32,190 bases of DNA, taken from positions 1-32,190 of the forward strand of contig JACPIY010000029.1 of assembly GCA_016187835.1 (NCBI GenBank). Reading direction: 5' to 3'. Position numbers and translations under genes: made by a program. Every line of letters begins with the position of its first letter. Within the stretch, counting starts at the first letter, position 1. This DNA comes from Deltaproteobacteria bacterium (GTDB taxonomy: Bacteria; Desulfobacterota_D; UBA1144; Nemesobacterales; CSP1-2). Below the pieces are notes generated by a model. It searched no databases, had not been told where the DNA came from, and saw nothing but the letters and a program-made list of their open reading frames with translations. Positions 394-30,688 of the stretch are shown one piece after another.

Positions 394-1464
394 TTAATCA
401 CGTACCTTCGGCAACCGAAGTGGAGGCAGAATTTGTTCGATCTTAGCTCGACTGGGTTCCAACCACGACGGAAGCTGTAATTTCGTTCCCAGTTTCTCCG
501 GTGATTCATCTACTCCAAAGCCAGGCGGGTCAGTGGCAATTTCAAAGAGCACACCGCCCGGCTCCCGAAAGTAAATTGAGCGGAAATAATTACGATCCAA
601 CACAGGGGTAACATTTAATCCCAGCTTGACAATCTCCTGACGCAAGACCTTTTGTTCATCATCATTAGCTGCTCGCCAAGCAACATGGTGCACGGTGCCC
701 ACAGCTATCTTGCCCATGGTTCCATCAGGAAGGCACAGAACGTCAATTAAAGTTCCTGAACCTCCAGGGCCAACCTCGTACCTGAACCGGTTGCCGGCCT
801 CGCTGACGTAGCGGAAGCCGAGTCCTTCAGTGAGTATCGAAGCCGTTCGTTCATATCCTTCTACCGTGATAGTTAAGCTAACTCCAAGGAATGTAACGGC
901 ATTCAAAAGGAATGTTGCGTAAGGCCCCGCTGCAGCAACAACGAAACCGCCTAGTGCCGGACCGATTGCCCTCGACATGTTAAATCCTACGCTGTTAAGG
1001 GCTATTGCAGCTGGCAGTTCTTGAATAGGCACAAGTTCCGGCACAATCGCTTGCCATGCCGGTGCGTTCATTGCCGCGCCTAAGCCGAGCAAGAAAGTGA
1101 ATGTCAAAAGCACCCAGGGAGTGGTTATTCCAAGAAAAGTCAAAATACCAAGCCCTGCGGCAGCAACAAGCATCCATCCCTGTGTGACTATAAGTAAACG
1201 ACGGCGGTCAACTATATCTGCCAGCGCTCCTGCAGGTAGAGCAAGTAAAAACATTGGCATTGTTGTTGCTGTTTCCACCAACGCAACCATGATAGGCGGC
1301 GGCGCAAGCGAGGTCATGAGCCACGCCGCACCAACGTCTTGCATCCATGTTCCTATATTTGAGGCAACTGTGGCGATCCAGAGTGCTCGAAATAAAGGTT
1401 GATAAAAGGGACTCCACGCCGACCTGGTTGGCGGACTGTTACTGGACAAGAATAGTCTCTCCAA
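394..1464 (-). CDS. Chimeric protein: N-terminal ~195 aa of an MFS transporter (about 6 TM helices) fused to the C-terminal domain of a VOC/glyoxalase-family ring-cleaving dioxygenase; probably a gene remnant
   Basis: 356-aa ORF. The N-terminus has MFS-like hydrophobic helices (RALWIATVASNIGTWMQDVGAAWLM...). The C-terminal 150 aa read GFRYVSEAGNRFRYEV...VHHVAWRAANDDEQ...IYFREPGGVLFEIATDPPGF, typical of the second domain of two-domain VOC dioxygenases. GC content (~55%) is clearly higher than flanks (~38%). Confidence 0.6.
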   Translation of the reverse strand: MERLFLSSNSPPTRSAWSPFYQPLFRALWIATVASNIGTWMQDVGAAWLMTSLAPPPIMVALVETATTMPMFLLALPAGALADIVDRRRLLIVTQGWMLVAAAGLGILTFLGITTPWVLLTFTFLLGLGAAMNAPAWQAIVPELVPIQELPAAIALNSVGFNMSRAIGPALGGFVVAAAGPYATFLLNAVTFLGVSLTITVEGYERTASILTEGLGFRYVSEAGNRFRYEVGPGGSGTLIDVLCLPDGTMGKIAVGTVHHVAWRAANDDEQKVLRQEIVKLGLNVTPVLDRNYFRSIYFREPGGVLFEIATDPPGFGVDESPEKLGTKLQLPSWLEPSRAKIEQILPPLRLPKVRD

Positions 1465-3130: not shown

Positions 3131-3460
3131 AATAAATCCTTAACAAGAATTCACTAGTGTTCTTGTTGTCATGAATGAAATCGCAATTTATTTCGTTTGT
3201 TTGTCCTATAGGTTAATCTAGGTTAGTCCACTAATTTGACGTCTGAAATCAAAACATTGAGTGGAAAGATAATAACTCCCTGTATCGGAGTTTGTTGTAT
3301 GGATAATGAAACGGGTTTTAGTGTAAGAGGTGCTATAGAACCTCAGAGGAAATTTCAAATTGGATTGATTATACGGAGGAAGAGAGGTTAGAAGTTCTTG
3401 AAAATCTTAAAAACAGGGAGCGAACTTTTGGTCAATCTTGGAAATCTGTTTATAGAAGCT

Positions 3461-3799
3461 TCACCCACGAGGGTAGGGTAAACCATGCTTTCTGCGGTGA
3501 TTCTGCATTTCTTTTTTCTGGTGGGTTTTGATACAAAGGTCGGAGCGTGGTTTTGCACTACAGATTAAAACAAAACCTCCTTCCTTATCTTCAGGATAAA
3601 AACGAACAGCTTCGGATTGATCCACTTCTCCATTAAGGAGTCGTGAAGCGCAGGTTAAGCAGAACCCCTGCAAACACATGGATGGAAGATTATAACCTGC
3701 GTTATAAGCGGCATCGAGGATATACTCATCCTCTCCTACTTCGAGGCAGGCTATATCTTCCGGAGTATGGAGTTTGACTTGGTAGCTCTTCATTAACAT
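3461..3799 (-). CDS. Plant-type [2Fe-2S] ferredoxin
   Basis: Cys motif CLQGFCLTC (C-x4-C-x2-C) plus distal C (LICSAKP). Length about 100 aa. Confidence 0.8.
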   Translation of the reverse strand: MLMKSYQVKLHTPEDIACLEVGEDEYILDAAYNAGYNLPSMCLQGFCLTCASRLLNGEVDQSEAVRFYPEDKEGGFVLICSAKPRSDLCIKTHQKKEMQNHRRKHGLPYPRG

Positions 3800-3858
3800 A
3801 CAAAGATAGACGGGACTAGAAAGTCCCGTCTATCTTTGCTTTTGATTGCAATTACGGA

Positions 3859-4455
3859 TTATAAAAGCCACGGTTTTTGCTGTATGGAGCATCTCCCGGC
3901 TCTCCACGACGGAAATGGCCCGATGGAGCTTAGTAGTTCTATAAACCAGGCTTCGTGTTCAACCTCTTCCTGAAGGATTCGAGAAGCCATATCATAGGTG
4001 CGCGGGTCCTTGCCAAACGTAAGGTCACATACCTCGCTCCAGGTTCTAATTGCGCATCTTTCAGCTTCAAGTAGAATTTCTAGTATGCCAGCCGCAGTAG
4101 GGTTTTGTGGCAGATATGCATCTGCGCAGGATGCTCTGTCTGCGAAATCTCTTATGTCTGTTGGTAGGCTTCCTCCAAGCTCATAAATTCTGGGAGTAAT
4201 AAGCTCAAAGTGAGCACGGTCCTCAAGACGTGCGTCTTCGCAGATCTCCTTGTAGTCTTCGTTTCCTGCGAGGTACATACGTAGAACTGTGTAATAGTAA
4301 TATGTAGTAAACTCAGCACCAGCCGCATCAATTAGTTTTTCACGTAGTTCTGTAACGTTAACACCGCGAGCTTCAAGTTGTTCAACTCCTACGCGCTGAG
4401 TTACGTCTCCTGGCTTTACCTTTCCTGTCATGTGCTTTTTAACCTTTGTCGCCAT
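3859..4455 (-). CDS. Ferritin-like diiron-carboxylate protein (Dps/bacterioferritin/rubrerythrin superfamily)
   Basis: Two ExxH motifs (LEDRAHFEL and [10 protein letters not shown]) about 100 aa apart, as in ferritin-like four-helix-bundle proteins. Divergent from the Fur-family gene. Confidence 0.6.
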
Positions 4456-4564
4456 ACGTTTATTCCTCCTTGTTTGATTTTACTGTTATATGGGTTTACA
4501 TTATATCTTATTGCAATTCAATATCAAGTAAAATATAATATCAAATGTAATTGACTATTGAATG

Positions 4565-4582
4565 GATAATAAATCTATTATG
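4565..4582. promoter_or_regulatory. Candidate Fur/PerR-family operator in divergent promoter region
   Basis: Near-perfect AT-rich palindrome gATAATAaatcTATTATg between the divergently transcribed ferritin-like gene and the fur-family gene. Resembles Fur/PerR box half-sites. Confidence 0.35.
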
Positions 4583-4629
4583 TTGGTTGTATGCTTTATA
4601 TAATAAATTAAAAAAGCGAGTTTTTTAGG

Positions 4630-5070
4630 ATGAATAAAGAAGAAAAACTCCAGAAGTTGGTTGACATATCACGTGAAAAAGGGTTAAAACTCACCCCTCA
4701 GCGGATGGCAATTTTTCGTATACTCTCCGAATCGGACAAACATTTAACTGCTGATGAAGTGTATCAAAAAGCTAGAAAGGATTATCCAATGCTTTCTGCA
4801 GCGACAGTATATCGTAATATGGAGCAGATGGTTAGTTCCGGTCTGCTTTCTAATCTGGGTCGCAGCGGGGCAGCAATGAAATACGATACTAACCTTGAGG
4901 AACATCATCATTTTATTTGTTCTCATTGTGGGAAGGTTTATGATGTTTACCTTAGTAAAGTCACTTACGAACTGGACATGGAAAAATCCCGATTGGGTGA
5001 CGCAAAAATAGATGTTTCAGAACTATACTTGTATGGTGTATGTGAAGATTGTTTGAATAATTACGGTTAG
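4630..5070 (+). CDS. Fur-family metalloregulator, likely PerR-like given context
   Basis: N-terminal winged helix (LKLTPQRMAIFRIL...SAATVYRNM). HHHFICSHCG and CEDC metal-binding motifs. Neighbours are ferritin-like, ferredoxin and MsrAB genes. Confidence 0.85.
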   Translation: MNKEEKLQKLVDISREKGLKLTPQRMAIFRILSESDKHLTADEVYQKARKDYPMLSAATVYRNMEQMVSSGLLSNLGRSGAAMKYDTNLEEHHHFICSHCGKVYDVYLSKVTYELDMEKSRLGDAKIDVSELYLYGVCEDCLNNYG

Positions 5071-5182
5071 AATCTAAGGAACAATTGATTTGTAATAATC
5101 TAAATTTGACCAAACAGGCAATGTGGAGCTAAATTTCACCTAGTTTAATAATTTCTATCAAGTAACTGTCATTCGACCGTTC

Positions 5183-5577
5183 CTCCTGTCATCCTGAAAA
5201 CCAAGAAGATTCCTCACAAGCTCCCTCACAGGAGTTTACCCTGAGCACTTCGATTCTCTCAGTGCAGGCTCCGCCGAAGGGTTCGGGACAGGGTTCGGAA
5301 TGACAAATGAGACTGTCGTTTTGACCGACCCTCTTGTCATTTCGACTATCCCTTCTGTCATTTCGACCCCATGAGATAATTTCATATCTCATGGGGGAGA
5401 AATCTTAGCCTTCGAGAAATGACACCTTTTGTCAGATTGCTTCCCGGAGCTTATTCCTTCGCTTTTCTCAGGACGGGCTCTGAGGTATAGAAGCGCTAGG
5501 AGTGACAGCCTAGAGAATTTTGACAGAGGGTAAAATAGTACTTACCTTGTCCGACAGAATAAATCTTGATTATTACC
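5183..5577. repeat. Repeat family A, copy 2
   Basis: Direct repeat of 1..362 with two small indels; contains palindrome cccatgagataatttcatatctcatggg. Confidence 0.85.
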
Positions 5578-5696
5578 ATTGACTCCACACCGGAACTTGC
5601 TTGTATCTTTTATATTCACTCCAAATTAAACTCTTTGTTGAAACTTTATTTCTTATTTATCATCTTAATTGTGTACTTTGACAAAAGGAGATAAAT

Positions 5697-6767
5697 ATGT
5701 CAGTGAATATTTTTAGAGTCTTATGTTCATTGTTTATCTTATTTTTAACACAGAATAGCCTCCATGCGGAAACAAAACTCGAAACAGCTACCTTTGCCGG
5801 AGGTTGCTTTTGGTGTATGGAGCCGCCTTTTGAGAAACTCGATGGGGTTATAGAAGTAATATCAGGTTATACGGGTGGACATAAAGTGAACCCAAAATAT
5901 GAGGAGGTATCGGCTGGGGTAACCGGTCATGTGGAAGCCGTTCAAATCACTTATGACCCGTTTAAAGTGACTTATTCGGAACTTCTTGAGGTTTTCTGGA
6001 GGCAAATAGACCCAACTGACCCTGGCGGGCAATTTGTTGACAGGGGCTCACAATACAGAAGTGTGATTTTTTATCATAATGACGAACAAGAAAGGTTTGC
6101 CGAGGAGTCAAAAGATGAGCTGGAAAAGTCAGGAAAATATGGGAAACCAATCGTAACCGAAATCGTCATGGCTTCAGAATTTTACAAGGCAGAGGAATAC
6201 CATCAAGATTACTATAAGAAGAATCCGATAAGATATAAGTTTTATCGCTATAACTCAGGCCGTGATCAATTCTTAAAAAAAATATGGGGTGATAAAATGC
6301 AAAGTAAGTCCATAAACTCAAATGAAAAGTATAAAAAATTAAGTAAAGAAGAGCTCCGAAAAAAATTAACTCCAATCCAGTACAAAGTTACGCAGGAAGA
6401 GGGGACCGAAAGACCATTTAGTAATGAATATTGGGATAATCACAGGGATGGGATCTATGTTGACATAGTTTCCGGAGAGCCTCTTTTTAGCTCCCTCGAC
6501 AAGTATGATTCCGGAACCGGATGGCCGAGCTTTACCAAATCGCTTGAGGCTGAAAATATTATAGAGAAAGAGGATAGAAGCTTTTTTACGGCAAGAACAG
6601 AGGTTAGAAGCAAGCATGCCGATTCTCATCTAGGGCATGTTTTCGATGACGGGCCTGAGCCAACCGGACTTCGTTACTGCATGAACTCTGCCGCTCTTCG
6701 TTTTATTCCAAAAGAGGATTTGGAAAAAGAAGGGTATGGTGAGTATAAAAAGCTTTTTGAGAAATAA
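5697..6767 (+). CDS. msrAB: Secreted bifunctional peptide methionine sulfoxide reductase MsrA-MsrB fusion
   Basis: Signal peptide. GGCFWCME (MsrA active site). C-terminal SelR/MsrB domain with RYCMNSAAL. Confidence 0.9.
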
Positions 6768-6825
6768 AGGAATTTCCCACCCATTGAACGTGAGGCTTAC
6801 ATAAATTTTCAAGAGCAAAATATAT

Positions 6826-6888
6826 CGGGTAGCCCACCAGTCTTGCTGGTGCGTGATGTCGCAACGAGCAAGACTCGTTGCCTACCCG
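6826..6888 (+). other. Y-shaped structured element (candidate terminator or small RNA) downstream of msrAB
   Basis: Outer 7-bp stem cgggtag/ctacccg enclosing two hairpins (caccag-tcttg-ctggtg and gcaacgag-caaga-ctcgttgc). No following U-run. Confidence 0.3.
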
Positions 6889-6916
6889 GTTCAGAACGCA
6901 ATTAGGGTTTTCTCTA

Positions 6917-7201
6917 AAGTTCTGTTTTCTTTACTGATAAACTTCTCAGATTTGCAAGAGATGAGTTTAAGCCTGTGAAAACTATAGAGGTATCGGTGTT
7001 TGATTTTTGCTGATAAGGACTTAATTCTGTCAAACACACTGCGTATAACAGTGTTTCGCTCTCTCGTATTCTCCACTCGAAAATCTAACCGAAAGGGTAT
7101 TGTCTGGAATCTAAAAAAGCACCAAAATTAATAAGTGTTGAAATCAGGCCGTCTTTTGTGATATAAATAGCTTATGCATAAGATCGGTTCAAAAATGACT
7201 G
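6917..7201. repeat. Repeat family B, copy 1
   Basis: ~85% identical to 8694..8984, direct orientation. Small ORFs across the copies differ by frame-breaking indels, so it is non-coding. Confidence 0.8.
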
Positions 7202-7469
7202 AAATATATACAATGCAAGCGCTAAAGATTTTGGCAGGATTAAAAGCCCTCCGGATAATTTGAAGAGGGGAAGAGGTGAGGAAAACAAAAAATAAGCCTG
7301 TCCAGCTTTGTCGAAGGATCGGTTTTAACTAGAGTAAGAAATTAATATACCAATTTGGAGGGGATAACCGCAGTAATGCAATTATTGGCCGTTATCTGCT
7401 CATTGCGGGCAGGAGAAAGGAGGATTAAAAAAATACAACCGTCTCTAAAAATTAAAAGGAGGTAGTATA

Positions 7470-8693: not shown

Positions 8694-8984
8694 CTGAAGT
8701 TGCTGATAAACTTTTCAGATTTGCAAAAGATGAGTTTAAACCTGTGAAAACTATAGAGGTCCCTGTGTTTGATTTTGCTGAAAGGACTTAATTCCGTCAA
8801 AGACATAGTGTATAACAGTGTCTCGCGCTCTCGTATTTTTCAGCCTAAAATCTAGCCAAAATCGTATTGATTCTGCAATTTGGAAAAGTAGCCAAAATAC
8901 TTATAGAGAAATTGTTGCTGTTGTTGTTGAAATCAAACTGTCTTTTGTGATATTTTATGTATAAAATCGGTTCAAAAACGACAG
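8694..8984. repeat. Repeat family B, copy 2
   Basis: See copy 1. The pair brackets the SPFH and zinc-ribbon genes. Confidence 0.8.
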
Positions 8985-9353
8985 ACTGGCCTAAGAGAAA
9001 GATGCGCGCAATGAATTTTAAGAAGAAACTGTTGAAAGCTTGACTATTCAATTAAGAGAATAAAACAATGCAAAGGCGCCCGTTAAAGGAAGGCTGCAGT
9101 TCCTATGCGTCTAAAAACCGGGGAATGCAGAACATGAATTTATGACCACATACCCTAATACAATTTATGAGGAGGACTGCTTGATGATTTCCGCAAAGCA
9201 CTTAAGGATGAAATTGAAGTTGCTAAACGGAATTCTTCGTATAGTGCTATACCACTAAGCAATGGCCATAAAGTAGCTCAGCTCAGCTCCGCTTTCCAAT
9301 ATGCTTTCCTGATAGATACTGTTCTGAATGCTCCTGATGGCGCACCCGGTGAC

Positions 9354-12300
9354 TTGCTAGTGCCAGGTAAACCCCCGCTTGAGGTCACAATAGTTTCAAC
9401 CGAAGGACTCCGCCTAGTTGTAAGCGTTAATATTGATCTTGGTCAATACGTTCCAACTGCGCGACTACAGACTAATCTAACCATTCTCATGCGAAAATTA
9501 ATTGAACGTATCGAGAAAAATGCATCTGCTGCTAATCCTGCCGCCTCGCGAATGCTTGGTAATAGCCCTGTTTCTGGCGAATCCAAATCTATTCTAGAAA
9601 AAAATCTTAACGAGGACCAATTGAAAGCTCTTAACAGTGCACTTGGACGGAACCTCACTTTTATTTGGGGACCTCCCGGGACAGGCAAGACTCACACTAT
9701 TGGTACTATTGCTGAATACCTGTATCGTGATAAAAATACCGTTCTTATTGTGTCACACACAAATACGGCTGTCGACCAAGCCGTTAAACATGTTGCTACC
9801 GCCTTTAAGGAAAAACTAGGAATCGCCCTGTTACAGGGAGGTATCCTGCTTCGAATTGGCGATGTTCGTGATGAAGTACTCAAATCAGCATTTCCAGAGG
9901 TTCTAGTAAAGAATCAAGTTGAACGACAATTCAAGGAACTTGTCGAGAAAAGGGAGCAACTGGCTTCACAAAAGCAAGGCATGGAAGATGAACTGAATTC
10001 CCTTAACCGACAAATCACTATTATTGAATGGATTTCAGGTTCGGTTGGGGATATTCGTGCTTCCCAAAATCAAGTAAATGAACTTCATGAAAAGGAGCAT
10101 GCACTTTCAATATCGGAGCAAGAGCTTTCTGATCTCACGGACAAACAGACAGCACTCAGAAAGAAAGAACAATTGGCGACGAGGGTTCTCTCCTTAAAGA
10201 AGGAACTATCTGAAACAAAATCAAAAGAGGGTGAATTACAGCAAAAGCTTGATTCGCTTTCGTCTGAAATCAGTACAACAACATTGCAACTTCATCGCCA
10301 GAAGGAAATCTATGAGATTGCCAAACGAATAGAACCTTTACGTAAAGAATTGGCATCCTACACCTCAATTGACAAGCAAAAAGCCGCTATTGCCGAGATT
10401 TACTCCAAAATTTCCGAGCATTCAAGCCAAATTGCTGATCTCCAAACCGCCTTTAATAACGCTACGAAAATCCTAGAACAATCATGTAGCTCTGGTGCAA
10501 TGATGCGCCTTTGGAAACGACTTCCCAAACCTGAAGAACAGCAGATTGCTGTCAACACAGTAAAAACCCAACTTGATAGTGCCATCAATGAAAAGGCAAA
10601 TGTTCAAAAAACCTTTGAGACCTATGAAGACCTTCTCATACGAACAGAAAAGCTAGCTGCCGAGCTTTCCAAATACTCACATATCAGTGACTATGCCCAA
10701 GAAACGGCGAATTTGGAAAAGGCCAATGACTCGTTATCAGTGCTCAACCAAAAGTCAGCCGAGCTAAAAGATAGGGTTGCATCAGTTTTAAGAGCGATAG
10801 CTACGCTACAAGCTGAAATAGATAAAGGTATTACTGAACTCAGTGCTGACCCAAACGAAGTGTTGGCTGACGTTAGTAATCAGTTGAAATATTTCTCCGA
10901 TCTCAATGAAGTAGTCAAAAGCATTGGCTCAGATTGTAGGGTGATGCGCTCTCAATTGACATCCATCTTAACCCATATGCTAGAGTGTCTTACGGTCTGG
11001 GGGCTTGTTAATTCCAAGCCGACTGGCGTTGAGGGAATGCTTCTTCTAATTAAAGAGACCCATGCGGCAGTAGGTGCAAACTTTGCATCGTCCGACTTGT
11101 ATTCACTAAACAATAAGGCAGGTGAATTGCGAGTCGAGATATTCCGATTATCTTCTGAAATCTCAGAGATAGAGGACAACCTATCTCAGGTAGAAAAAAT
11201 CGTAATTGCCAAAGCTGCCATTATCGGTGCAACTCTAACAAAAATATATCTGAGTGACGACATTCAAGGCCGGAAATTCGATACGGTCATAATAGACGAA
11301 GCATCTATGGCACCGATTCCGGCTCTATGGGTAGCCGCCTTATTGGTAGAGAGAAACCTTGTGATTGTTGGAGATTTCATGCAGCTTCCGCCGATTGTTC
11401 TTTCAAATAATACGTTAATCCAGTCCTGGCTTGGTAGAGATATCTTCGAAGCATCAGGGGTCAGAGATCTTTGGGAGAAGGAGGAGCCACCAGAATATTT
11501 CATTCCACTTACAGAACAACGGCGTATGCTACCGCAAATAGCAGAAATCGCAAACTTGTTTTATAAAGGGAATCTCAAAACACGACCTGACCAAATAAAT
11601 CTAAACGATGACAATTTCCTATCGTGGTATAACAAAGATTGGCCATACGATAATCCTGTGCTTCTTGTGGACACGGGTTCTCTTAATGCATGGGTTACAA
11701 GCGTAGTCAAGAACGGGAATACAAGCAGACTTAATTTTCTTTCTGCAACAGTCTCAATAGACATTGCTGAACAACTTCTTCTGCCGGGCCGTCCCCGGAG
11801 GCAGGAAGGTGCTCCCAAGCGTATTTTAATCATTTCTCCTTATCGTGCTCATGCAAAATTGGTAAGTATTCTTCTCAAAGAAAACGATGCGATACAGGAT
11901 GATGTCATTTCTGGAACGGCACACAGCTTTCAAGGGTCTGAAGCCTATGTCGTTATTTTTGATATGGTAGCGGACGAACCACATTGGCGTGTCAACTTAT
12001 TTATGCCTGACTTGGATGACCAGCTCAAGAGTCTTCTAAACGTGGCTTTGACAAGGGCGAAAACACGACTGATTGTTTTAGGCGATTTTAATTATTGCCA
12101 ATCTCACGGGGAAAAGGCTTTTCTTGGAAAATCCTTACTACCTTTTCTATTAAAGAAATACCCGCGTGTAGATGCCTCACAAATCATACCTGAAGGTCTG
12201 GCTTCAAGAGCAGCAAAAACACAGATGCGCATGCTTGGTGGCTCTATCGAGCCAGATTCCGACCGTATTGTGGTGACTCAAGCAGATTTCTATCGTGTTC

Positions 12301-13106
12301 TTTCTACGGATTTCTCACGCGCTACGAATCGTATAGTTATCTATTCTCCTTTTATTACCCAAGACCGTGTAGCATTTTTACTGCCCCAAATGCAAGCGGC
12401 CGCTTCTCGTGGCATTACGATATTCATTCTGACAAAATCTCATTCAGAACGTTCTAAAACAGAACTCAACCTTTATAGAAAGTTGGAAAACCAGCTTTCA
12501 GAAATTGGAGCTGTTATTATCCACAAACTGCGAATGCATGAAAAGCTAGTCTTTATTGATGACAATATTACATGGTCTGGTTCTTTGAACCCATTGAGTT
12601 TCTCAAATACTCAAGAAATAATGGAACGTCGAAAAAGCTCTTCCGTCTTACAGGACTATTTTAAAATATTGCGGCTTGAGGAACTTCTATTAGTTCCTGG
12701 TAAGCCTGAATCGAAATGCCCCATCTGTGGTTCTGAAATGATAGCTGCAGAGGGTGCGGATGAACCGTATTATTGGCGGTGTGCTAATGATGACTGTTAT
12801 TCACGAAGCATTGACCAGCCCTATCCTATTGACGGAATGTTAACATGTGGTTCTTGTAATTCAACAGTAGAGTTTGGGTATTGGGGTGATTATCCTCATT
12901 GGCGTTGTTGTTCGAATACGAGACATCGGCAGAAAATCTTCAAGTCTCATTTGCGACTACCGAAGATGGCTGCCCTAGTGCCAAAATCAGAACGAAAGAA
13001 ATTATGTAGGCTGCTTTCCATTGATGATTTTGATTCATTCATTATTGGAGATACCCATCAGCGGAATGGCATTGTTCAAAGTAGTCTTTTCGGGGATGAT
13101 AATTGA
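9354..13106 (+). CDS. Large fusion protein: Upf1-like SF1 helicase (AAA_11/AAA_12 type) with ~430-aa coiled-coil insertion + single-HKD PLD-family nuclease + tandem topoisomerase-type zinc ribbons. True start probably upstream (frame is open from 9171)
   Basis: Walker A GPPGTGKT (nt ~9669). Q-like LNEDQLKAL. Motif II VIIDEASM (nt ~11296). Motif IV FIPLTEQRRM. Motif V/VI SFQGSEAYVVIF and ALTRAKTRLIVLGD. PLD HKD motif HEKLVFIDDNITWSGSLN (nt ~12535). Cys clusters CPICGSE...WRCANDDC and CGSCNS...WRCCSN. Confidence 0.85.
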   Translation: MLVPGKPPLEVTIVSTEGLRLVVSVNIDLGQYVPTARLQTNLTILMRKLIERIEKNASAANPAASRMLGNSPVSGESKSILEKNLNEDQLKALNSALGRNLTFIWGPPGTGKTHTIGTIAEYLYRDKNTVLIVSHTNTAVDQAVKHVATAFKEKLGIALLQGGILLRIGDVRDEVLKSAFPEVLVKNQVERQFKELVEKREQLASQKQGMEDELNSLNRQITIIEWISGSVGDIRASQNQVNELHEKEHALSISEQELSDLTDKQTALRKKEQLATRVLSLKKELSETKSKEGELQQKLDSLSSEISTTTLQLHRQKEIYEIAKRIEPLRKELASYTSIDKQKAAIAEIYSKISEHSSQIADLQTAFNNATKILEQSCSSGAMMRLWKRLPKPEEQQIAVNTVKTQLDSAINEKANVQKTFETYEDLLIRTEKLAAELSKYSHISDYAQETANLEKANDSLSVLNQKSAELKDRVASVLRAIATLQAEIDKGITELSADPNEVLADVSNQLKYFSDLNEVVKSIGSDCRVMRSQLTSILTHMLECLTVWGLVNSKPTGVEGMLLLIKETHAAVGANFASSDLYSLNNKAGELRVEIFRLSSEISEIEDNLSQVEKIVIAKAAIIGATLTKIYLSDDIQGRKFDTVIIDEASMAPIPALWVAALLVERNLVIVGDFMQLPPIVLSNNTLIQSWLGRDIFEASGVRDLWEKEEPPEYFIPLTEQRRMLPQIAEIANLFYKGNLKTRPDQINLNDDNFLSWYNKDWPYDNPVLLVDTGSLNAWVTSVVKNGNTSRLNFLSATVSIDIAEQLLLPGRPRRQEGAPKRILIISPYRAHAKLVSILLKENDAIQDDVISGTAHSFQGSEAYVVIFDMVADEPHWRVNLFMPDLDDQLKSLLNVALTRAKTRLIVLGDFNYCQSHGEKAFLGKSLLPFLLKKYPRVDASQIIPEGLASRAAKTQMRMLGGSIEPDSDRIVVTQADFYRVLSTDFSRATNRIVIYSPFITQDRVAFLLPQMQAAASRGITIFILTKSHSERSKTELNLYRKLENQLSEIGAVIIHKLRMHEKLVFIDDNITWSGSLNPLSFSNTQEIMERRKSSSVLQDYFKILRLEELLLVPGKPESKCPICGSEMIAAEGADEPYYWRCANDDCYSRSIDQPYPIDGMLTCGSCNSTVEFGYWGDYPHWRCCSNTRHRQKIFKSHLRLPKMAALVPKSERKKLCRLLSIDDFDSFIIGDTHQRNGIVQSSLFGDDN

Positions 13107-13467
13107 TACATCAGAGCAATTCACGAAACATCGTGTTTTGTACGTATTATAGAAACGGTCGCCGGGGAAAAAAGGAAGAGAATCGGTAAAAACGATATAA
13201 GAATTTCAAAGGCAGCGCGCGCAGGGGAAAAGGCCAGTCAAACAGACGCTAACAGTGGCATTACGTTCGCTTCGGACATACCTGCTCGACAAGGGGTAGC
13301 ACCTTCGATTCATGTAACTTCACTCAGTCACTCCGGGAGGTTTTTATAGGTGGCCACGTCGTAATGCCACAAGCGTTAGGCAAAATTGCCCCTTAGAAGA
13401 ATACGTGATAAGCATTTCAGTATTTACCAATTTCACTAATATCTTGCTGGTTTTGCCGGGTTGAAGT

Positions 13468-17946: not shown

Positions 17947-17960
17947 TTTAAGTCCTCTAA

Positions 17961-18075
17961 ACTAGAAGTTCCAAATTACAAGCACCAAATTACAAATAAA
18001 TCACAAAGTCTGAGGCACCAAATCTCAAACAGATACCAAATAACAGATTCCTAATTTCCAAACGTTTGGAATTTG
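17961..18075. repeat. ACCAAAT-rich repeat family C, copy 1 (intergenic)
   Basis: Tandem caagcaccaaattacaaat / ggcaccaaatctcaaac units and a perfect 16-nt palindrome ttccaaacgtttggaa. Motifs caagcaccaaat and ccaaatctcaa recur at 25055..25226. Confidence 0.6.
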
Positions 18076-19695
18076 TCATTTGGTATTTGTGTTTTCATAC
18101 GGCTGAGTAACTACGTCGTCTTCGAGTAGTACATTTAAAACCTTTTTCTCAAATTCTTCTAAATCGGTTCTTCCAAGCTTTTTATATATTGAGATTAGAG
18201 CTATATGAATTTCGGGGTTAAAAGGGTTTATGGATATCGCTTGAGTATATGCTTCTTCTGCCTTATTTAAGTTTCCCTTTTCCAAGTAGATTTTCCCAAG
18301 ATTAGTGTAGGTTTCTATATATTCAGGATGTAACTCAAACAGAGGTGTTAGTCTTTCTTTTGCTTTATCGTATTCCCCATAAGCGCTTAGAGTTGAAGCC
18401 AGACGGTTTAGAATAATGGGCGATAGGGGGTCAAAGTGAAGCGCTTTTTCATATTCATAAGTTGCGGCTTTCAGCCTCCCCCTGGTTCTGAGCATGTCGC
18501 CGAGTCTTGTATAGTTTTTAGCCTGGGCATTGTCCAGTTCAACCAGGTCTTCGCTTTGGTCTTTGGACCCTGCTCTCTTTTCCTCAAATCTCAGTTCCTT
18601 TACTTTTACTTGGGGGGTTCTTTCTTTAAGGTTCCTCGATCTCAGGTCTCTTATCCATGTGTTGTAGAAGTCGGCAAAATTCTTTTTTGTAACCTCTTTT
18701 ATAGCCACCTTATAATCGTTTTTTTCTTTGATATTGTTAAGCAAATCCACAAGCGATTTATTCCCCCATTTTTTTACAAGAAAGTCCACAATCGTTCCGA
18801 CTTGCGCAAATGCAAGCTGGGCTTCATAGGCACTGCTTAGCTTTCCGAGGGATGGATGCATTTTCTCTATTGGAACGAGATTGTTTGCCTTAAGCGCCTT
18901 TGCAAGGAGGGTTTCGTAAAAAGGATTTATGACATTTCTCTTCTTTTCTTTCCATCTTTTTTCTTCAAATTTGGCAATACCTTCATGCAGCCACACAGGA
19001 ACGGTATTGCCGCTTTTAAGAAATATAAGATAATGGGTGTATTCATGTGCCAGTGTATCAAGCCACGTATAACCTTGAGGCAGAAGTCTTGGCGATAAGA
19101 TCATTATGCGGTTGAACTTGCAGATTCCTACTACCCCTGTGGTTTTTATATCATTTTCTGAAAGGGTAGAAGCGAGTGTAAAACTTTCAAGATTAGGATA
19201 TATCTCAACAACTACCGGCTCGCTGGGGTAGCTCTCTAAATCGAGCCCGATTTCATAGTAAACCCGTTCAAGCACGTCTTCTGCATAACTCACGAGAATT
19301 GAATCCTTTGAATGGGAGTATCTTATTATGAAATGCTCAGTTTTTACTTCTTCGAATCTTTCCCCATTCTTGGCGACCTTAATTATATAATCTAAAAAAC
19401 CACCGATTTCTTTATCCGCGGGAATTAGTGCATGCGACTTTTCTCCCAGCTCTCTCGCTTTAGTATAGTTGCTTTTATAAAACTCAACCTGAGACTTGAA
19501 AAAATAAGCAAGAGCTTTATCATCAGGACTTTCTGCGAGTTTTAAGATTCTATCCGCGGCTTGTGATGCTTCAGATACCTGCCCACTGAAAAGGTATTGT
19601 TTTCCGCTTTGTAGCTCTATTTCAAAGTCCGGTTCTTTAGCCAAAGCGTTTATACAGAGGGAGAAAAACGAAATTAGAAAGAGTAAACTTTTCAC
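18076..19695 (-). CDS. Secreted peptidase-MA-like (HExxH) domain protein with C-terminal TPR repeats
   Basis: Signal peptide MKSLLFLISFFSLCINALA. LAHEYTHYL...WLHEGIAKFEE gluzincin-like motif. C-terminal TPRs (AEEAYTQAISINPFNPEIH). In an operon with moxR. Confidence 0.7.
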   Translation of the reverse strand: MKSLLFLISFFSLCINALAKEPDFEIELQSGKQYLFSGQVSEASQAADRILKLAESPDDKALAYFFKSQVEFYKSNYTKARELGEKSHALIPADKEIGGFLDYIIKVAKNGERFEEVKTEHFIIRYSHSKDSILVSYAEDVLERVYYEIGLDLESYPSEPVVVEIYPNLESFTLASTLSENDIKTTGVVGICKFNRIMILSPRLLPQGYTWLDTLAHEYTHYLIFLKSGNTVPVWLHEGIAKFEEKRWKEKKRNVINPFYETLLAKALKANNLVPIEKMHPSLGKLSSAYEAQLAFAQVGTIVDFLVKKWGNKSLVDLLNNIKEKNDYKVAIKEVTKKNFADFYNTWIRDLRSRNLKERTPQVKVKELRFEEKRAGSKDQSEDLVELDNAQAKNYTRLGDMLRTRGRLKAATYEYEKALHFDPLSPIILNRLASTLSAYGEYDKAKERLTPLFELHPEYIETYTNLGKIYLEKGNLNKAEEAYTQAISINPFNPEIHIALISIYKKLGRTDLEEFEKKVLNVLLEDDVVTQPYENTNTK

Positions 19696-25054: not shown

Positions 25055-25226
25055 AAAACAAACCCCAAATACCAAATCACAAATCTCAAATGAAAGGAAT
25101 TTGCCTTATTGTTGTTATTTGAAATTTGGTAATTGTGGTTTGCCATTATTGTTTGGGATTTGGTGCTTGAGATTTGGAGTTTGTAGTTCCATTTGTGGCT
25201 AGATATTAACAAAAAGGAAAAACAAA
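25055..25226. repeat. ACCAAAT-rich repeat family C, copy 2, arranged as a long imperfect inverted repeat
   Basis: Forward half aaccccaaataccaaatcacaaatctcaaatg; reverse-complement half atttggtgcttgagatttggagtttg (contains the RC of caagcaccaaat). Confidence 0.55.
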
Positions 25227-27707: not shown

Positions 27708-28844
27708 TTATCCCAAATCTCTTAGTACCTTCCTAGCCTTTTCGGGCTCGTGTAGTGTGCCCAGCTTTTCGAAGATGTGGAGAGCCTGGGTAGTATATTT
27801 CTTTGCCTTATCTTTTTCCCCTTTTTCTTTGTATAACCTTCCTAAGCTAATATAACTCTTAGCAAGCTCGTTTTTTGCTCCTATTTCTTTAAGGATTCTA
27901 ATGCTATCTTCAATATAATTTTTAGCCTTATTAAAATCATTTCCACCGTATATTTCCCCTAAGACTCTATAAGCCATTCCCTCCCAGTGTCTAAAGCCGC
28001 TCTCTTTACTGATCTCTAAAGCTCTTTTTATCGTTTCCAGAGCTTTATCCCTTTCACCAATGGATAAATAAGCCTCTCCTAAATAGATGCTGGTTACAAC
28101 TTCTTGAAGTTTCAGTCCAAACTGTTTGCCCTGTTGGATAGCTTTCTCCATACACTCTATTCCCTTCTTTAACTGACCGTCCTTATAATAAGCCGCGCCA
28201 AGAAATCCTGTAGCAAATGTAGCAAATATCGGTGGGGGAGACATTTCGAGACACCTTTCACAGTACTTAATCGCTATGTCCCATTCTCCTTTTTCTAAAT
28301 GGGGAAGAGCGGCAAACCAGCATGCCAATGCCATGAGGTTGTTGTCTGATATTTCTTCACTTTTTTTCAGAAGCTTTTGTATATAGTTTATGCTTTTATC
28401 CCAGTTACCCGTAAACCAATAATATGCTCCTATGGCTTCGAAAGCCCTACCAAGCCAATAATGCTCTCCCAGTCTCTCTAGAATTTTTACACCTTTTTGG
28501 ACGATGGGAATCACCTTCTTAAATTCACCCTTGTACAAATAGTTATATCCTTGCCTTACGGATGCTAATCCAATAATTCTTTCATTTTTTGTTAACTCAG
28601 CTAGTTCAATCGACTTCGTACAGTACCGAATTGCATATTCAAGGTCTCCCCTCACTGAATAATAAAATCCCATTTTAAAGTAGTATTCTGCCAGCCTGTC
28701 TTTATCCCCAAGCTCTTCTACTATTGGTAGATTCTTTTCTAAGGTTCTTATATGTTCTTTAAATCGATTCATAAGACGCATAACTCTTGCCTGCTTTATG
28801 AATATATCTACCCTCTTTTCTTTATTTGCCCTGGTATTAGGCAT
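27708..28844 (-). CDS. TPR-repeat fragment (C-terminal part of the disrupted cyclase/STAND/TPR gene)
   Basis: Consecutive TPR units. Its reading frame is open upstream through VGYYEEALKRLDKMPNT, overlapping the end of the 28880..30688 ORF in another frame (-1 frameshift near 28882). Confidence 0.7.
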   Translation of the reverse strand: MPNTRANKEKRVDIFIKQARVMRLMNRFKEHIRTLEKNLPIVEELGDKDRLAEYYFKMGFYYSVRGDLEYAIRYCTKSIELAELTKNERIIGLASVRQGYNYLYKGEFKKVIPIVQKGVKILERLGEHYWLGRAFEAIGAYYWFTGNWDKSINYIQKLLKKSEEISDNNLMALACWFAALPHLEKGEWDIAIKYCERCLEMSPPPIFATFATGFLGAAYYKDGQLKKGIECMEKAIQQGKQFGLKLQEVVTSIYLGEAYLSIGERDKALETIKRALEISKESGFRHWEGMAYRVLGEIYGGNDFNKAKNYIEDSIRILKEIGAKNELAKSYISLGRLYKEKGEKDKAKKYTTQALHIFEKLGTLHEPEKARKVLRDLG

Positions 28845-28879
28845 CTTATCCAGTCTCTTAAGAGCTTCTTCATAGTATC

Positions 28880-30688
28880 CTACGCATCCTCGGTAGAATA
28901 AATCTTTGCAGACTTATCCCCTGCTAAGGTCAAATAATCTACTGCCTTTTCATCCCTGGTGCTTCTCCTATAGTGATATGCTAATAGCTCATAATTCTCT
29001 TCCAGTTTATCCCCATATAAGTCCTCTAATATCTCTCCTATCTTTCCGTGTAATTCTTTTCTTCTTTTAATAAGGAGGCTATTATAAGCTACTTCCTGTG
29101 TAAGGCTGTGTTTGAATCGGTATTCTAAGTCTGGAAAGAGGCTTTTCTCATATATTAGCTCTAAACCTTTTAGCTGAGTAAGATAATCCTGAAGCTCTTC
29201 TTCTATCTCAATTATCTCTTTTAGCAATTTATAGCTAAATTCCCTACCAATAACAGAGGCATATTGAAGTGTCCTTTTAAGATTCTCTTCCAACCTGTCA
29301 ATCCTCGCCATTATAATGTCCTGTATAGTATCAGGTACATCCACCTCTGCTATACTCTTGCTAATACTGTAGCCATCTTCTCTTCTAACAATTATCTCTG
29401 ACTCAATGAAAGACTTAATAATCTCTTCTACATAAAAAGGAATTCCATCGGCTTTGTTTGTAACTAATTTAATTAGCTCTCCAGTTACTCTTTCACTATC
29501 TAAGATTGATTTTATCATCTCCTCTACTTCCTTATCTGACAGCCGACTTGGAGCAATTTGAATGTGATAGGATTTTTCACTCCATTTAGCCCTGTAACCG
29601 GGGCGACTTGTAAGAATTAGCATTATCTTACTGCTGGGTATATTATCTATAAGGAAGGTCAAAAACTCCTCAGATGCACCATCTATCCAGTGAAGATTCT
29701 CAACCGCTACAACAAGTGGTCTCAAGTTGCTATCGGCTAAAATTATATTCTTTAAGGTCTCAAGTGTCCTTTTCCTTTTATCTCTTAGGTCTAAGCTCTT
29801 AAGAAGAGCATCTGTCTCAATTGAAAGTATGTCGTAGAGGAAAGGAATACTCCCCTCTAAGTTTGGGTCTATATCTCTTATCCCTTTCTCTATATTCTTT
29901 CTTATCGTTCTTTCAGTATCTAGATTATCTATTCGAAACCTCTTTTTTATAATATCTGTAACAGGTAAATAAGAGATCGATTTTCCATATGAAATACATC
30001 TACCTTCTAAGTAAAGTATTTTTTCATCTTCTATGAGTTTCCTAAACTCGTAAAGAAGCCGAGATTTACCTATTCCTGCATCACCTATTATGGTTACAAC
30101 CTGTCCCGCCCCTTCCTTCACCTGCTCCCAGCATTCCAGCAAAAGCTCTACTTCCTTCTCTCTTCCCACAAGCGGAGTCAGCCCTTTAGTGATAGAAACA
30201 TCAAACCGGCTCCGAACACCACTCTCATGGAGCACACGATACACATCCAACGGAGTTGAAAATCCCTTTAACGTGTGCAGGCCGAGGTAATGGTACTCGA
30301 ATAATCCCTCAACCAGACGATATGTGGCAGAACTGATCACCACCGTATAAGGCTCTGCTACACTCAGCAGCCGAGCAGCAATGTTAGGTGTCCCACCCAC
30401 GATCTCTATAGGTTCCCGCGTATCTTTTACTTTCATTTCTCCTATTACCATAAGACCTGTATGTATTCCTACGCGCACCTGTAGTGGTAATTGTACTTGT
30501 GTGTTCTCTAGGGGCAGTTGACCAAACGCATCTACAATCTCCAACCCTGCGCATACTGCCCTTTTTGCATCATCTTCATGTGCCGACGGATAACCAAAGT
30601 AGACCAACAGCCCATCATCAAAGTATCTTGCTATGCGTCCCTCAAAGCGGCTGACCAACTTTGAGGAGACATCGAGATGGGTACGCAT
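28880..30688 (-). CDS. Class III adenylate/guanylate cyclase domain + STAND (AAA_16-type) NTPase fragment of a disrupted gene
   Basis: Cyclase motifs (RFEGRIARYFDDGLLVYFGYP, IGIHTGLMVIGE). Walker A VVTIIGDAGIGKSRL. The listed Met start is internal. The same frame upstream reads [17 protein letters not shown], and the first 15 cyclase residues ([14 protein letters not shown]) are in the sigma-54 activator frame. Confidence 0.7.
   Translation of the reverse strand: MRTHLDVSSKLVSRFEGRIARYFDDGLLVYFGYPSAHEDDAKRAVCAGLEIVDAFGQLPLENTQVQLPLQVRVGIHTGLMVIGEMKVKDTREPIEIVGGTPNIAARLLSVAEPYTVVISSATYRLVEGLFEYHYLGLHTLKGFSTPLDVYRVLHESGVRSRFDVSITKGLTPLVGREKEVELLLECWEQVKEGAGQVVTIIGDAGIGKSRLLYEFRKLIEDEKILYLEGRCISYGKSISYLPVTDIIKKRFRIDNLDTERTIRKNIEKGIRDIDPNLEGSIPFLYDILSIETDALLKSLDLRDKRKRTLETLKNIILADSNLRPLVVAVENLHWIDGASEEFLTFLIDNIPSSKIMLILTSRPGYRAKWSEKSYHIQIAPSRLSDKEVEEMIKSILDSERVTGELIKLVTNKADGIPFYVEEIIKSFIESEIIVRREDGYSISKSIAEVDVPDTIQDIIMARIDRLEENLKRTLQYASVIGREFSYKLLKEIIEIEEELQDYLTQLKGLELIYEKSLFPDLEYRFKHSLTQEVAYNSLLIKRRKELHGKIGEILEDLYGDKLEENYELLAYHYRRSTRDEKAVDYLTLAGDKSAKIYSTEDA

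Follow-up and report, generated by a model that had tools for sequence, protein, structure and literature searches.

What does the large helicase-nuclease gene on contig JACPIY010000029.1 of a Deltaproteobacteria bacterium (GenBank assembly GCA_016187835.1) encode, and is it related to the known anti-phage systems? The stretch of DNA analysed here, in the following termed the window, comprises 32,190 nucleotides of this contig, and the gene in question lies in the main open frame at 9171..13106, which consists of 1311 codons and the stop codon at 13104-13106. The gene and all of its features described below are located on the + strand, and the residues of the window protein are counted from position 9171. 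In an earlier note, made from the DNA letters alone, the gene was proposed as a candidate Mokosh- or Nhi-like module of defence or nucleic-acid surveillance. Mokosh ranks among the commoner systems directed against phages, and it was reportedly proposed as the prokaryotic counterpart of MOV10L1 and Zucchini, the pair involved in the biogenesis of PIWI-interacting RNA (piRNA). For E. coli, both Mokosh I and Mokosh II were shown to be protective, and the ATP site of the helicase as well as the active site of the phospholipase D (PLD) nuclease were required (preprint 10.1101/2022.05.11.491447). The results presented here favour, on balance, the view that the locus encodes a stand-alone, mobile helicase-nuclease of the defence type, and that it belongs to a family which is sister to type II Mokosh but distinct from it.

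From the N- to the C-terminus, the window protein consists of an N-terminal domain, an Upf1-like superfamily 1B (SF1B) helicase with a coiled-coil hairpin in its first RecA domain (RecA1), a PLD domain with a single HKD motif, two zinc ribbons and a basic tail. The three Pfam hidden Markov models (HMMs) that the earlier note had named as a check on its helicase and nuclease assignments were all matched: AAA_11 with an E-value of 5.8e-35, split into a Walker A part at residues ~145-215 and a second part at residues 455-745, AAA_12 with 8e-25 (residues 770-972), and PLDc_2 with 6e-9 (residues 1047-1157). A family alignment was built from 48 sequences, the window protein and 47 homologues with identities of 41-89%. 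In all 48 sequences, the helicase motifs GPPGTGK (residues 167-173), VSHTN.A.D, DEAS (709-712), GD..Q..P, Q783/R785, T.H.FQG and NV...R are invariant, as is the PLD signature H1123-E-K1125-x4-D1130-x7-S-L-N1140. On the DNA, Walker A, or motif I (GPPGTGKT), is located at 9669..9692, motif Ia (VSHTNTAVD) at 9750-9776 and motif II (DEAS) at 11295-11306, within the remaining helicase core, which spans 11214..12095 and also contains motifs III (GDFMQLPP), IV (EQRRM), V (TAHSFQGS) and VI (NVALTRAK). The PLD domain, assigned by PLDc_2 and by its fold, covers 12258..12665 and contains the HKD motif HEKLVFIDDNITWSGSLN at 12537-12590. Judged by this conservation, the motif set is genuine and far beyond chance. 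The complete SF1B/Upf1 motif set that had been read from the DNA is intact, and the loss of H, K or D that would make the PLD domain non-catalytic was not seen in any of the 48 sequences.

For residues 114-1311, a structural model was calculated with AlphaFold2 (AF2) from the 48-sequence alignment, with a predicted local distance difference test score (pLDDT) of 82 and a predicted template modelling score (pTM) of 0.52; the N-terminal domain is outside the model. The closest solved folds for the helicase are those of Upf1, DNA2, IGHMBP2 and SETX, and motifs Q, I, Ia and II-VI together with a two-RecA fold carrying accessory inserts in RecA1 identify it as a member of the Upf1-like SF1B group. 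The PLD domain is predicted to adopt a NucT/Nuc/Zucchini-like fold, in line with the single-HKD type suggested before. The N-terminal domain (residues 1-113, 9171..9509) is conserved in the family alignment, and these ~113 residues have no Pfam match at E<=10. Since it is also carried by PLD-less Bacillus helicases (tblastn matches starting from query residues 3-25, among the matches listed), it may be a part of the helicase module.

The relation to Mokosh was analysed with the raw HMM scores of the PADLOC models at E<=0.01. Strong matches were obtained for Mokosh models only, namely MkoA PDLC03920 (5e-59, 198 bits, model positions ~595-1081), MkoC PDLC03924 (3e-45, 153 bits, model positions 773-1118 of 1136), MkoA PDLC03921 (3e-40, 136 bits) and MkoB PDLC03922 (8e-12, 43 bits). 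The MkoA match is unspecific, with PLD-less Bacillus helicases reaching 188 bits on PDLC03920. For calibration, a YjhR-like protein of 1172 amino acids from a Vibrio plasmid was scored on the MkoC model and gave 1414 bits over positions 5-1135 of 1136. This homologue served as the full-length MkoC reference in place of E. coli yjhR. The E. coli gene was named as a helicase-PLD fusion in a further preprint; in the annotation of K-12 MG1655 and two other strains, all three yjhR loci inspected are fragments or pseudogenes disrupted by insertion sequences.

In a profile-profile comparison with hhalign, the 48-sequence alignment matched an alignment of 32 MkoC-type proteins with a probability of 99.8% (E 6e-28, 399 columns). 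The match extends contiguously from residue 692 to 1146 of the window protein and from 686 to 1131 of MkoC, comprising motif II, RecA2, the linker and the HKD motif; the N-terminal halves of the two families are not alignable, and a match over the full length of the MkoC profile was not obtained. The K-12 YjhR fragment (338 amino acids) is collinear with the window protein from the C-terminus of the helicase through the linker to the HKD motif (BLASTP E 2e-15, 26% identity). Since the profile match runs through helicase, linker and PLD domain, the helicase-linker-PLD junction is homologous to that of MkoC, and the sequences suggest that the fusion itself, beyond its two domains, is common to both. 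MkoC-type proteins also contain an insert between Walker A and motif II, with a length of ~400 amino acids, a near-invariant motif WLSLFxxLPPV at its mid-point and arms that comprise 208 and 192 residues; its score on a crude coiled-coil index is lower than that of the insert of the window family. By this comparison, the insert as such is probably ancestral to both families, and the window family stands out by a longer arm, by its N-terminal domain, which is a different one, and by the basic tail and the two zinc ribbons. As the N-terminal half differs, these alignments place the window family as a sister family of type II Mokosh rather than as canonical MkoC.

The Mokosh assignment of the earlier note consequently holds in part: the single-gene logic of helicase and PLD nuclease was recovered, with the same architecture and a profile match to MkoC, and the suggested PADLOC comparison returned Mokosh models alone as strong matches, but the protein is not a canonical MkoC and only ~30% of that model is covered. 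A domain order possibly different from that of Mokosh II had been considered; the N-to-C order of helicase and PLD domain is the same. The C-terminal zinc ribbons, named as a difference from Mokosh II, are a real one, to which the N-terminal domain has to be added. The coiled-coil insert is a difference in its greater length, whereas an insert at this site with a similar mid-point motif is present in MkoC-type proteins as well.

The insert had been noticed as a huge coiled coil, and structure prediction placed it in RecA1. It comprises ~435 amino acids between motifs Ia and II (9906..11213), and residues ~246-681 are predicted by AF2 to be all-helical, with a pLDDT of ~80-86. Outward helices of 78, 71 and 41 amino acids are followed by a break at residues 441-453 and by helices of 47, 50, 49, 18 and 39 amino acids leading back. 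Each arm comprises ~195 residues, corresponding to ~29 nm if fully extended, as estimated at ~0.15 nm per residue. The break, which contains a short helix, coincides with the tip motif SGAMMRLWKRLPKPE (10491..10535), in which R446 and P452 are invariant; apart from these, W287 is the only invariant residue inside the insert in the 48 sequences.

The geometry of the hairpin is based on the predicted secondary structure and on an analysis of insertions and deletions. Shorter family members show paired deletions flanking the tip, of 58 and 77 amino acids in the Methanoperedens-type proteins and of 54 and 54 amino acids in three others. When the distances that separate the tip proline from the Walker A lysine on one side and from the motif II aspartate on the other were measured independently of the alignment, they fell into the classes (274, 257), (216, 180) and (~220, 203), with (~172, ~121) for distant relatives. 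The two distances correlate with r = 0.98 (n=54), where the sequences are not independent and represent at least 4 separate length classes. As both arms shorten together, as in SMC and Rad50, an antiparallel hairpin is supported by model and sequences alike. Tip-like motifs are located at the mid-point of relatives with 27-32% identity, for example GMGAIRRFFSGLDPERL and GMGFVLRLLHGLDPHKL.

Two zinc ribbons follow the PLD domain. The first is a Cys4 ribbon (CPIC...x17...C-x4-C, 12717..12797), predicted as beta-strands in the AF2 model and matched by Pfam Zn_ribbon_recom, with the ligands C1183, C1204 and C1209 invariant in the family alignment and C1186 nearly so (at least 90%). In the second, CCCH ribbon (CGSC...x16...C-x5-H, 12846..12926), which is the best Zn_ribbon_recom stretch, all four ligands (C1226, C1229, C1246 and H1252) are invariant. 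Zn_ribbon_recom (PF13408) is a borderline match on the whole protein; on the isolated tail of 151 amino acids it reached 33.7 bits in two stretches, at a cut-off of 25.3. Two Cys4 ribbons of the topoisomerase I type had been predicted: two ribbons are indeed present and the first is Cys4, but the second is CCCH, and a topoisomerase-type zinc finger was rejected, as zf-C4_Topoisom (PF01396) was not detected on the isolated tail even at E<=10. The basic C-terminal tail (12927..13103) starts with the conserved part RQKIFKSHLRLPKMAALVPKSERKKL, in which H1260, L1261, L1263, M1266 and P1271 are invariant in the family, and continues into a variable low-confidence end, with the final ~18 residues having a pLDDT below 50.

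Proteins of this kind have been identified in a number of bacteria and archaea. A word-indexed search revealed more than 120 full-length relatives of ~1300 amino acids with the same Pfam content, in metagenome-assembled genomes (MAGs) labelled as Deltaproteobacteria, Zixibacteria, Hydrogenedentota, Lentisphaerae, anammox bacteria, Geobacteraceae and archaea. Proteins from Methanoperedens and other archaea share 63-73% identity with the window protein. An exhaustive search with the C-terminal 327 amino acids, the PLD-ribbon module, identified 143 clusters (at 50% identity) with a threshold of E<=1e-30 and 520 with E<=1e-10, and nearly all matches form the C-terminus of proteins of 1200-1450 amino acids. 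A wider superfamily was identified by scanning genomes representing the species in GTDB with the generic pattern WGPPGTGK; among the matches listed, its members come from Planctomycetota, Bacillota, Hydrogenedentota and Actinomycetota, have ~1000-1200 amino acids with shorter arms, share at most 38% identity with the window protein and contain Walker A, DEAS, HKD and CxxC in the same order. On these sequence comparisons, the family is a large and deeply diverged sister lineage of Mokosh II in bacteria and archaea, with at least ~140 clusters at 50% identity.

The gene forms a self-contained unit at 8986..13152, consisting of the upstream region, the gene and a terminator-like hairpin, as defined by blastn. 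The locus of the closest homologue P0002 (L001) matches the window only at 8986-13152 with 92% DNA identity, and the locus of P0003 (L014) only at 9028-13140 with 86.6%; the flanks are unrelated in both cases. The terminator-like hairpin at 13122..13135, followed by TTTTGT, and the sigma-70-like hexamers in the upstream region are consensus matches only, both inside the unit. Since relatives with 86-92% DNA identity have only the gene unit in common, this pattern identifies the gene as a horizontally mobile, stand-alone unit of ~4.2 kb. Immediately upstream lies a direct repeat of ~270 nucleotides on the + strand, with copy 1 at 6931-7202 and copy 2 at 8700..8985 and a core of TTGAAA-N18-TATAAA preceded by TG; copy 2 ends exactly where the homology to L001 starts. 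The Band7/SPFH gene and the helicase-PLD gene are thus each preceded by a copy of the repeat, and in L001 the helicase-PLD gene is likewise flanked by copies (92-141 and 5283-5392). The upstream region of L001 resembles repeat copy 1 and its unique 3' flank (7214-7264 of the window), so that either the window gained the Band7 gene, the zinc-ribbon gene and repeat copy 2, or recombination between repeats removed them from L001. As scans of the whole window with Rfam (gathering thresholds) and for tRNAs detected nothing, the repeats do not correspond to a known RNA. The intergenic repeats and the nuclease gene between which the earlier note placed the helicase gene do exist, the repeats being these copies with a sigma-70-like promoter core; its accessory-looking region consists of ordinary metabolic and regulatory neighbours, and it is the gene itself that is mobile.

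The 13 genomic contexts of family members have no neighbouring gene in common, and the conserved synteny of orthologues that would have spoken for a housekeeping gene was not seen. Clear defence or mobile-element neighbours were identified in 4 of the 13 loci (a count without matched control): a type I restriction-modification (RM) system and SIR2 (L006), MazE/PIN, a nucleotidyltransferase pair and YhcG (L007), a NACHT protein of 1641 amino acids with an integrase, a D5-type primase and an excisionase-like helix-turn-helix (HTH) protein (L083), and HTH-BrxA-BrxB (L084). Other suggestive contexts contain HATPase_c_3 with a metallophosphatase, Bro-N, or a PLD-like fragment, and the 75 neighbours of 11 distant relatives include a type I RM system and PglX/PglZ. 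An enrichment near defence genes is suggestive at this stage.

Two of these loci show features of their own. In L084, a single TAA in frame breaks the gene at 3456-7334 precisely at the helicase/PLD linker (...IDEE-stop-YPVTD), with a GTG two codons on. Either a nonsense mutation or the onset of a gene fission into a type I-like pair could account for this stop; being indistinguishable from a nonsense mutation, it was not counted as a two-gene version. In L001, an open reading frame (ORF) of 99 amino acids directly 3' of the helicase-PLD gene (4761-5060) ends with ...GTFHPKLYVF and resembles the N-terminal fragment of a PLD-like (HxK) protein.

A defence function of the family is likely, and the defence-type reading is favoured because of the homology to a validated defence fusion, the conserved active sites, the patchy spread across domains of life, the mobility as a single gene and the occasional location in defence or integrative islands. 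A number of points weigh against it. Anti-phage protection has been demonstrated for E. coli Mokosh only, and both the kind of substrate, DNA or RNA, and what the coiled coil and the ribbons do are inferred. The best PADLOC model represents the generic helicase part of MkoA, and MkoC reached 153 bits over ~30% of the model, compared to 1414 bits for the Vibrio protein; as MkoA and not MkoC is the best-scoring model, PADLOC would probably not call a system here. Clear defence neighbours are present in only about a third of the loci, a fraction without matched control, and the neighbourhoods are of the housekeeping type in the window, L005, L008 and L082. Among 72,556 plasmids and 50,697 phage records, no close relatives were identified, only distant MkoC-type matches with 24-31% identity. 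The pTM of 0.52 leaves the arrangement of the domains uncertain, and the window copy is frameshifted as assembled. Finally, EcMokosh II is monomeric in solution (preprint 10.1101/2025.07.10.664194), and the dimerisation step proposed below is deduced from PLD chemistry, not observed.

Could the protein instead be an enzyme of the host for genome maintenance or RNA surveillance? It might then remove R-loops or flaps, process ssDNA gaps or act on aberrant transcripts, comparable to SETX, DNA2 and Upf1, with the coiled coil as a Rad50/SbcC-like tether. The folds closest to the helicase, the housekeeping neighbourhoods just listed, a locus adjoining RecQ and the weak coiled-coil similarity to Rad50, SMC and MukB are in agreement with this; yet the family is patchily distributed in bacteria and archaea with 63-73% identity between the two domains of life, relatives with 86-92% identity on the DNA level are located in unrelated flanks, the 13 contexts share neither partner nor synteny, some loci lie beside RM, BREX, NACHT or toxin-antitoxin genes, and among the relatives at profile level only Mokosh proteins carry a PLD fusion, which together make a maintenance enzyme unlikely. 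Even less probable appears a role mainly in competition between mobile elements or in plasmid exclusion, with the gene being cargo of integrative elements rather than serving the phage defence of the host. The island with integrase, D5-type primase and excisionase-like HTH protein, the Bro-N gene directly downstream in another locus and the compact moving unit with promoter-like and terminator-like signals of its own would fit such a role, whereas the lack of close relatives in the plasmid and phage records and the fact that most loci are without recognisable mobile-element genes within 8-10 kb do not. An Nhi-like nuclease-helicase immunity protein, the other system named in the earlier note, is extremely improbable: the general logic of a nuclease and an SF1 helicase in one polypeptide is all that is shared, no Nhi model was among the PADLOC matches at E<=0.01, and the nuclease of the window protein is a C-terminal PLD domain, while Nhi-like proteins were grouped with PD-(D/E)xK nucleases (preprint 10.1101/2025.07.10.664194). 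This candidate was therefore rejected.

The state of the window copy has to be weighed separately. Position 9171 is the codon directly after a TGA stop and is not a start, and between 9171 and 9354 there is no in-frame ATG, GTG or TTG; from the first start codon, TTG 9354, the ORF has the 1250 amino acids given in the earlier note. The nearest homologues, P0002 (89% identity, 1326 amino acids) and P0003 (84%, 1330 amino acids), begin with MTTYPNTIYEEEISLPPLLDDF. The native ATG and the first 12 codons (MTTYPNTIYEED) were identified in the window by translation at 9142..9177, out of frame with the remaining gene. A pairwise DNA alignment with L001 revealed a gap of 16 nucleotides between 9175 and 9176, where AAATATCTTTACCGCC is missing and the frame is shifted after codon 12; the gap is clean, as the bases directly flanking it on both sides are identical to those of L001, a locus with 92% identity. 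The allele P0387 from an independent assembly has 1326 amino acids with the intact N-terminus MTTYPNTIYEEEISLPPLLDDF; its other 1309 residues match the window protein with 100% identity. It belongs to the 90%-identity cluster of MBI2486338.1, the NCBI product of the window gene, which starts from an internal ATG with 1205 amino acids ('MAG: Deltaproteobacteria bacterium'). On this comparison, the native protein has 1326 amino acids and starts at ATG 9142, so that the single polypeptide described before stands and its length does not. Given this intact and otherwise identical allele, the most likely cause of the gap is either an error in assembly or consensus or a lesion of very recent date. 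A programmed frameshift at 9170-9180 was ruled out, the site being a deletion of 16 nucleotides relative to intact, otherwise identical alleles.

A decaying pseudogene, in which the deletion is genuine and the product is N-terminally truncated or absent, is possible but doubtful for the window copy, and would be compatible with the family consisting of defence genes; defence genes are often lost. The clean gap, the lack of an in-frame start codon at 9171-9354, the conservation of the lost N-terminal domain throughout the family and the in-frame stop in the family member at L084 argue for it. Against it, the remaining ORF is free of further lesions, and the identity over 1309 amino acids to the intact allele points to a very recent event or to an error in assembly or consensus of the MAG. 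Elsewhere in the contig, the ORF of 356 amino acids at 394-1464 (- strand) consists of the first ~200 of 524 positions of the MFS_3 model and a glyoxalase/VOC domain; it looks truncated or fused, which may likewise point to deletions or assembly problems in this contig.

How would a defence-type helicase-nuclease of this architecture act? Upf1-like helicases translocate 5'->3' on single strands, and a single HKD motif, as in Nuc and Zucchini, represents half a PLD active site. In vitro, EcMokosh II cleaves only ssDNA substrates, nicks plasmid and is active only at 1 uM, and it protects only against an ssDNA phage (preprint 10.1101/2025.07.10.664194). The helicase of the window family would load on single-stranded nucleic acid of the invader, either ssDNA replication intermediates or RNA, and would translocate 5'->3' with ATP; this motor-driven engagement is proposed by analogy with Upf1-like helicases and E. 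coli Mokosh II. As a single HKD is half an active site, cleavage should need two PLD domains to meet, either by a substrate-driven encounter of two molecules or by dimerisation at the coiled-coil tip. The conserved hairpin tip would be a candidate mediator or sensor of this encounter, and the zinc ribbons and the basic tail would hold the strand.

A more specific and rather unlikely version of this mechanism sees the ~30-nm hairpin with its tip as a licensing device, in which molecules join via the tip only on single strands of the invader, so that their half-site PLD domains are united; the partners may be two helicase molecules, or one molecule and a partner bound to the target. To our knowledge, such a control of a nuclease has not been described for any defence system. 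If true, an SMC/Rad50-style arm would have been grafted onto an Upf1-like motor, and the model could explain Mokosh in general, because canonical MkoC seems to have a shorter insert with a tip motif. Common to the window family and MkoC are the insert at a fixed RecA1 site, the hydrophobic-LP motif at its mid-point and the single HKD, which by itself does not make up an active site, and the natural arm-length variants provide material for structure-function work. A hairpin with co-varying arms and a conserved tip in an Upf1-like motor, tied to a half-site nuclease, is unusual and offers a handle on Mokosh-type licensing. As current defence-finder models probably miss the window family, Mokosh-like immunity is possibly under-counted in environmental and archaeal genomes.

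The other genes of the window do not form a defence island, with no meaningful PADLOC match among the neighbours. They encode a major facilitator superfamily (MFS) transporter, a short-chain dehydrogenase/reductase (SDR), a ferredoxin, a Dps-like ferritin, Fur, MsrAB, Band7, a staphylococcal nuclease (SNase) homologue, an NdhD-like protein, MoxR, enzymes of pterin synthesis and a sigma-54 activator. Downstream of the helicase-PLD gene, the SNase gene at 13468-14139 matches the PADLOC model 'SNc+LTD' with 117 bits. Because of its N-terminal membrane helix, its product is likely a secreted or anchored thermonuclease; as a partner it was rejected on account of this helix, since it is not conserved beside homologues and since three unrelated ORFs intervene in L001. 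An SNase-like N-terminus (…FRVTRVLDGDTLVLD) is located in L001 at 7172-7417, at the contig end and 2.5 kb downstream of the helicase gene, and the proximity of SNase to both genes is probably a coincidence or the remnant of a common context. The upstream pair of Band7/SPFH and zinc-ribbon genes was likewise dismissed as a partner, being unmatched by PADLOC and absent from the relatives.

Some further features of the window were observed. Long direct repeats of a second family (~370-400 nucleotides, blocks of 81-97% identity, no Rfam match) lie between genes at 15-384, at the contig start by the MFS-like gene, and at 5198-5599, between the fur-like gene and msrAB. CAAAT-rich inverted repeats at 17960-18095 and 25060-25188 (arms of 40-43 nucleotides, 77-80% complementary) bracket ~7 kb with genes for a tetratricopeptide repeat (TPR) peptidase, DUF4175, two 6-pyruvoyl-tetrahydropterin synthases (PTPS), GTP cyclohydrolase I and an SDR. 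At 27708-30688 (- strand), a protein of 602 amino acids with a nucleotide cyclase and a STAND-like AAA_16 domain is followed by a TPR protein of 378 amino acids; beside them lies a receiver-less sigma-54 activator, which matches PADLOC models of the RtcR/PspF type with 366 bits. Similarities to PycC are only weak (40 bits).

In the animal piRNA pathway, MOV10L1/Armitage and Zucchini/PLD6 are separate proteins without coiled-coil hairpin or zinc ribbons, and Zucchini is a membrane-anchored, constitutive dimer; a small-RNA pathway is not implied here. DNA2, IGHMBP2, Upf1/Nam7, SETX/Sen1, Aquarius and ZNFX1 have small 1B/1C domains in place of the two-armed coiled coil of ~435 amino acids in RecA1, and DNA2 has an N-terminal PD-(D/E)xK nuclease where the window protein has a C-terminal PLD domain; unlike these solved Upf1-like helicases, the window protein is prokaryotic and mobile. 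Nuc and NucT stand alone, as small homodimers. The window protein has one HKD motif per chain with a Nuc-like fold, EcMokosh II being monomeric as mentioned above, and since its PLD domain is tethered to a motor, the pairing of two PLD domains is probably regulated in this family.

With Rad50/SbcC, SMC/MukB and LmuB of Lamassu, the window protein shares a long antiparallel hairpin that interrupts a nucleotide-binding domain, has arms co-varying in length and ends in a conserved tip, and weak matches at the level of the coiled coil were obtained for LmuB, Rad50, SMC1 and MukB. However, the head of these proteins is an ABC ATPase instead of an SF1B helicase, and the tip of the window protein (WKRLPKPE) contains neither the CxxC zinc hook nor a hinge domain as in Rad50 and SMC. 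As far as sequence comparison goes, the similarity to Rad50, SMC and LmuB is compositional, and a common origin is unsupported.

Mokosh I is resembled in the helicase core, for which MkoA gave the best PADLOC score (198 bits), and in the PLD domain, which matches MkoB (8e-12). MkoA and MkoB are, however, encoded by two genes, while the window contains a single ORF; the positions 1 to ~590 of the MkoA model are unmatched, and a Ser/Thr kinase domain as present in MkoA was not found by Pfam in the window protein. From Mokosh II the window protein differs in the N-terminal ~290 amino acids of MkoC, which are replaced by an unrelated domain of ~113 amino acids, in the distance from Walker A to motif II (542 compared to ~400 amino acids) and in the ribbons and basic tail, while YjhR and the Vibrio MkoC end ~20-40 amino acids past the HKD region; the identity is only 24-26%. 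Shared by both are the union of an N-terminal Upf1-like helicase with a C-terminal PLD domain of the single-HKD type in one gene, a large insert that occupies the same position between Walker A and motif II and has a hydrophobic-LP(P) motif halfway along, and, for the window family in its 13 contexts, a single gene without an obligatory partner.

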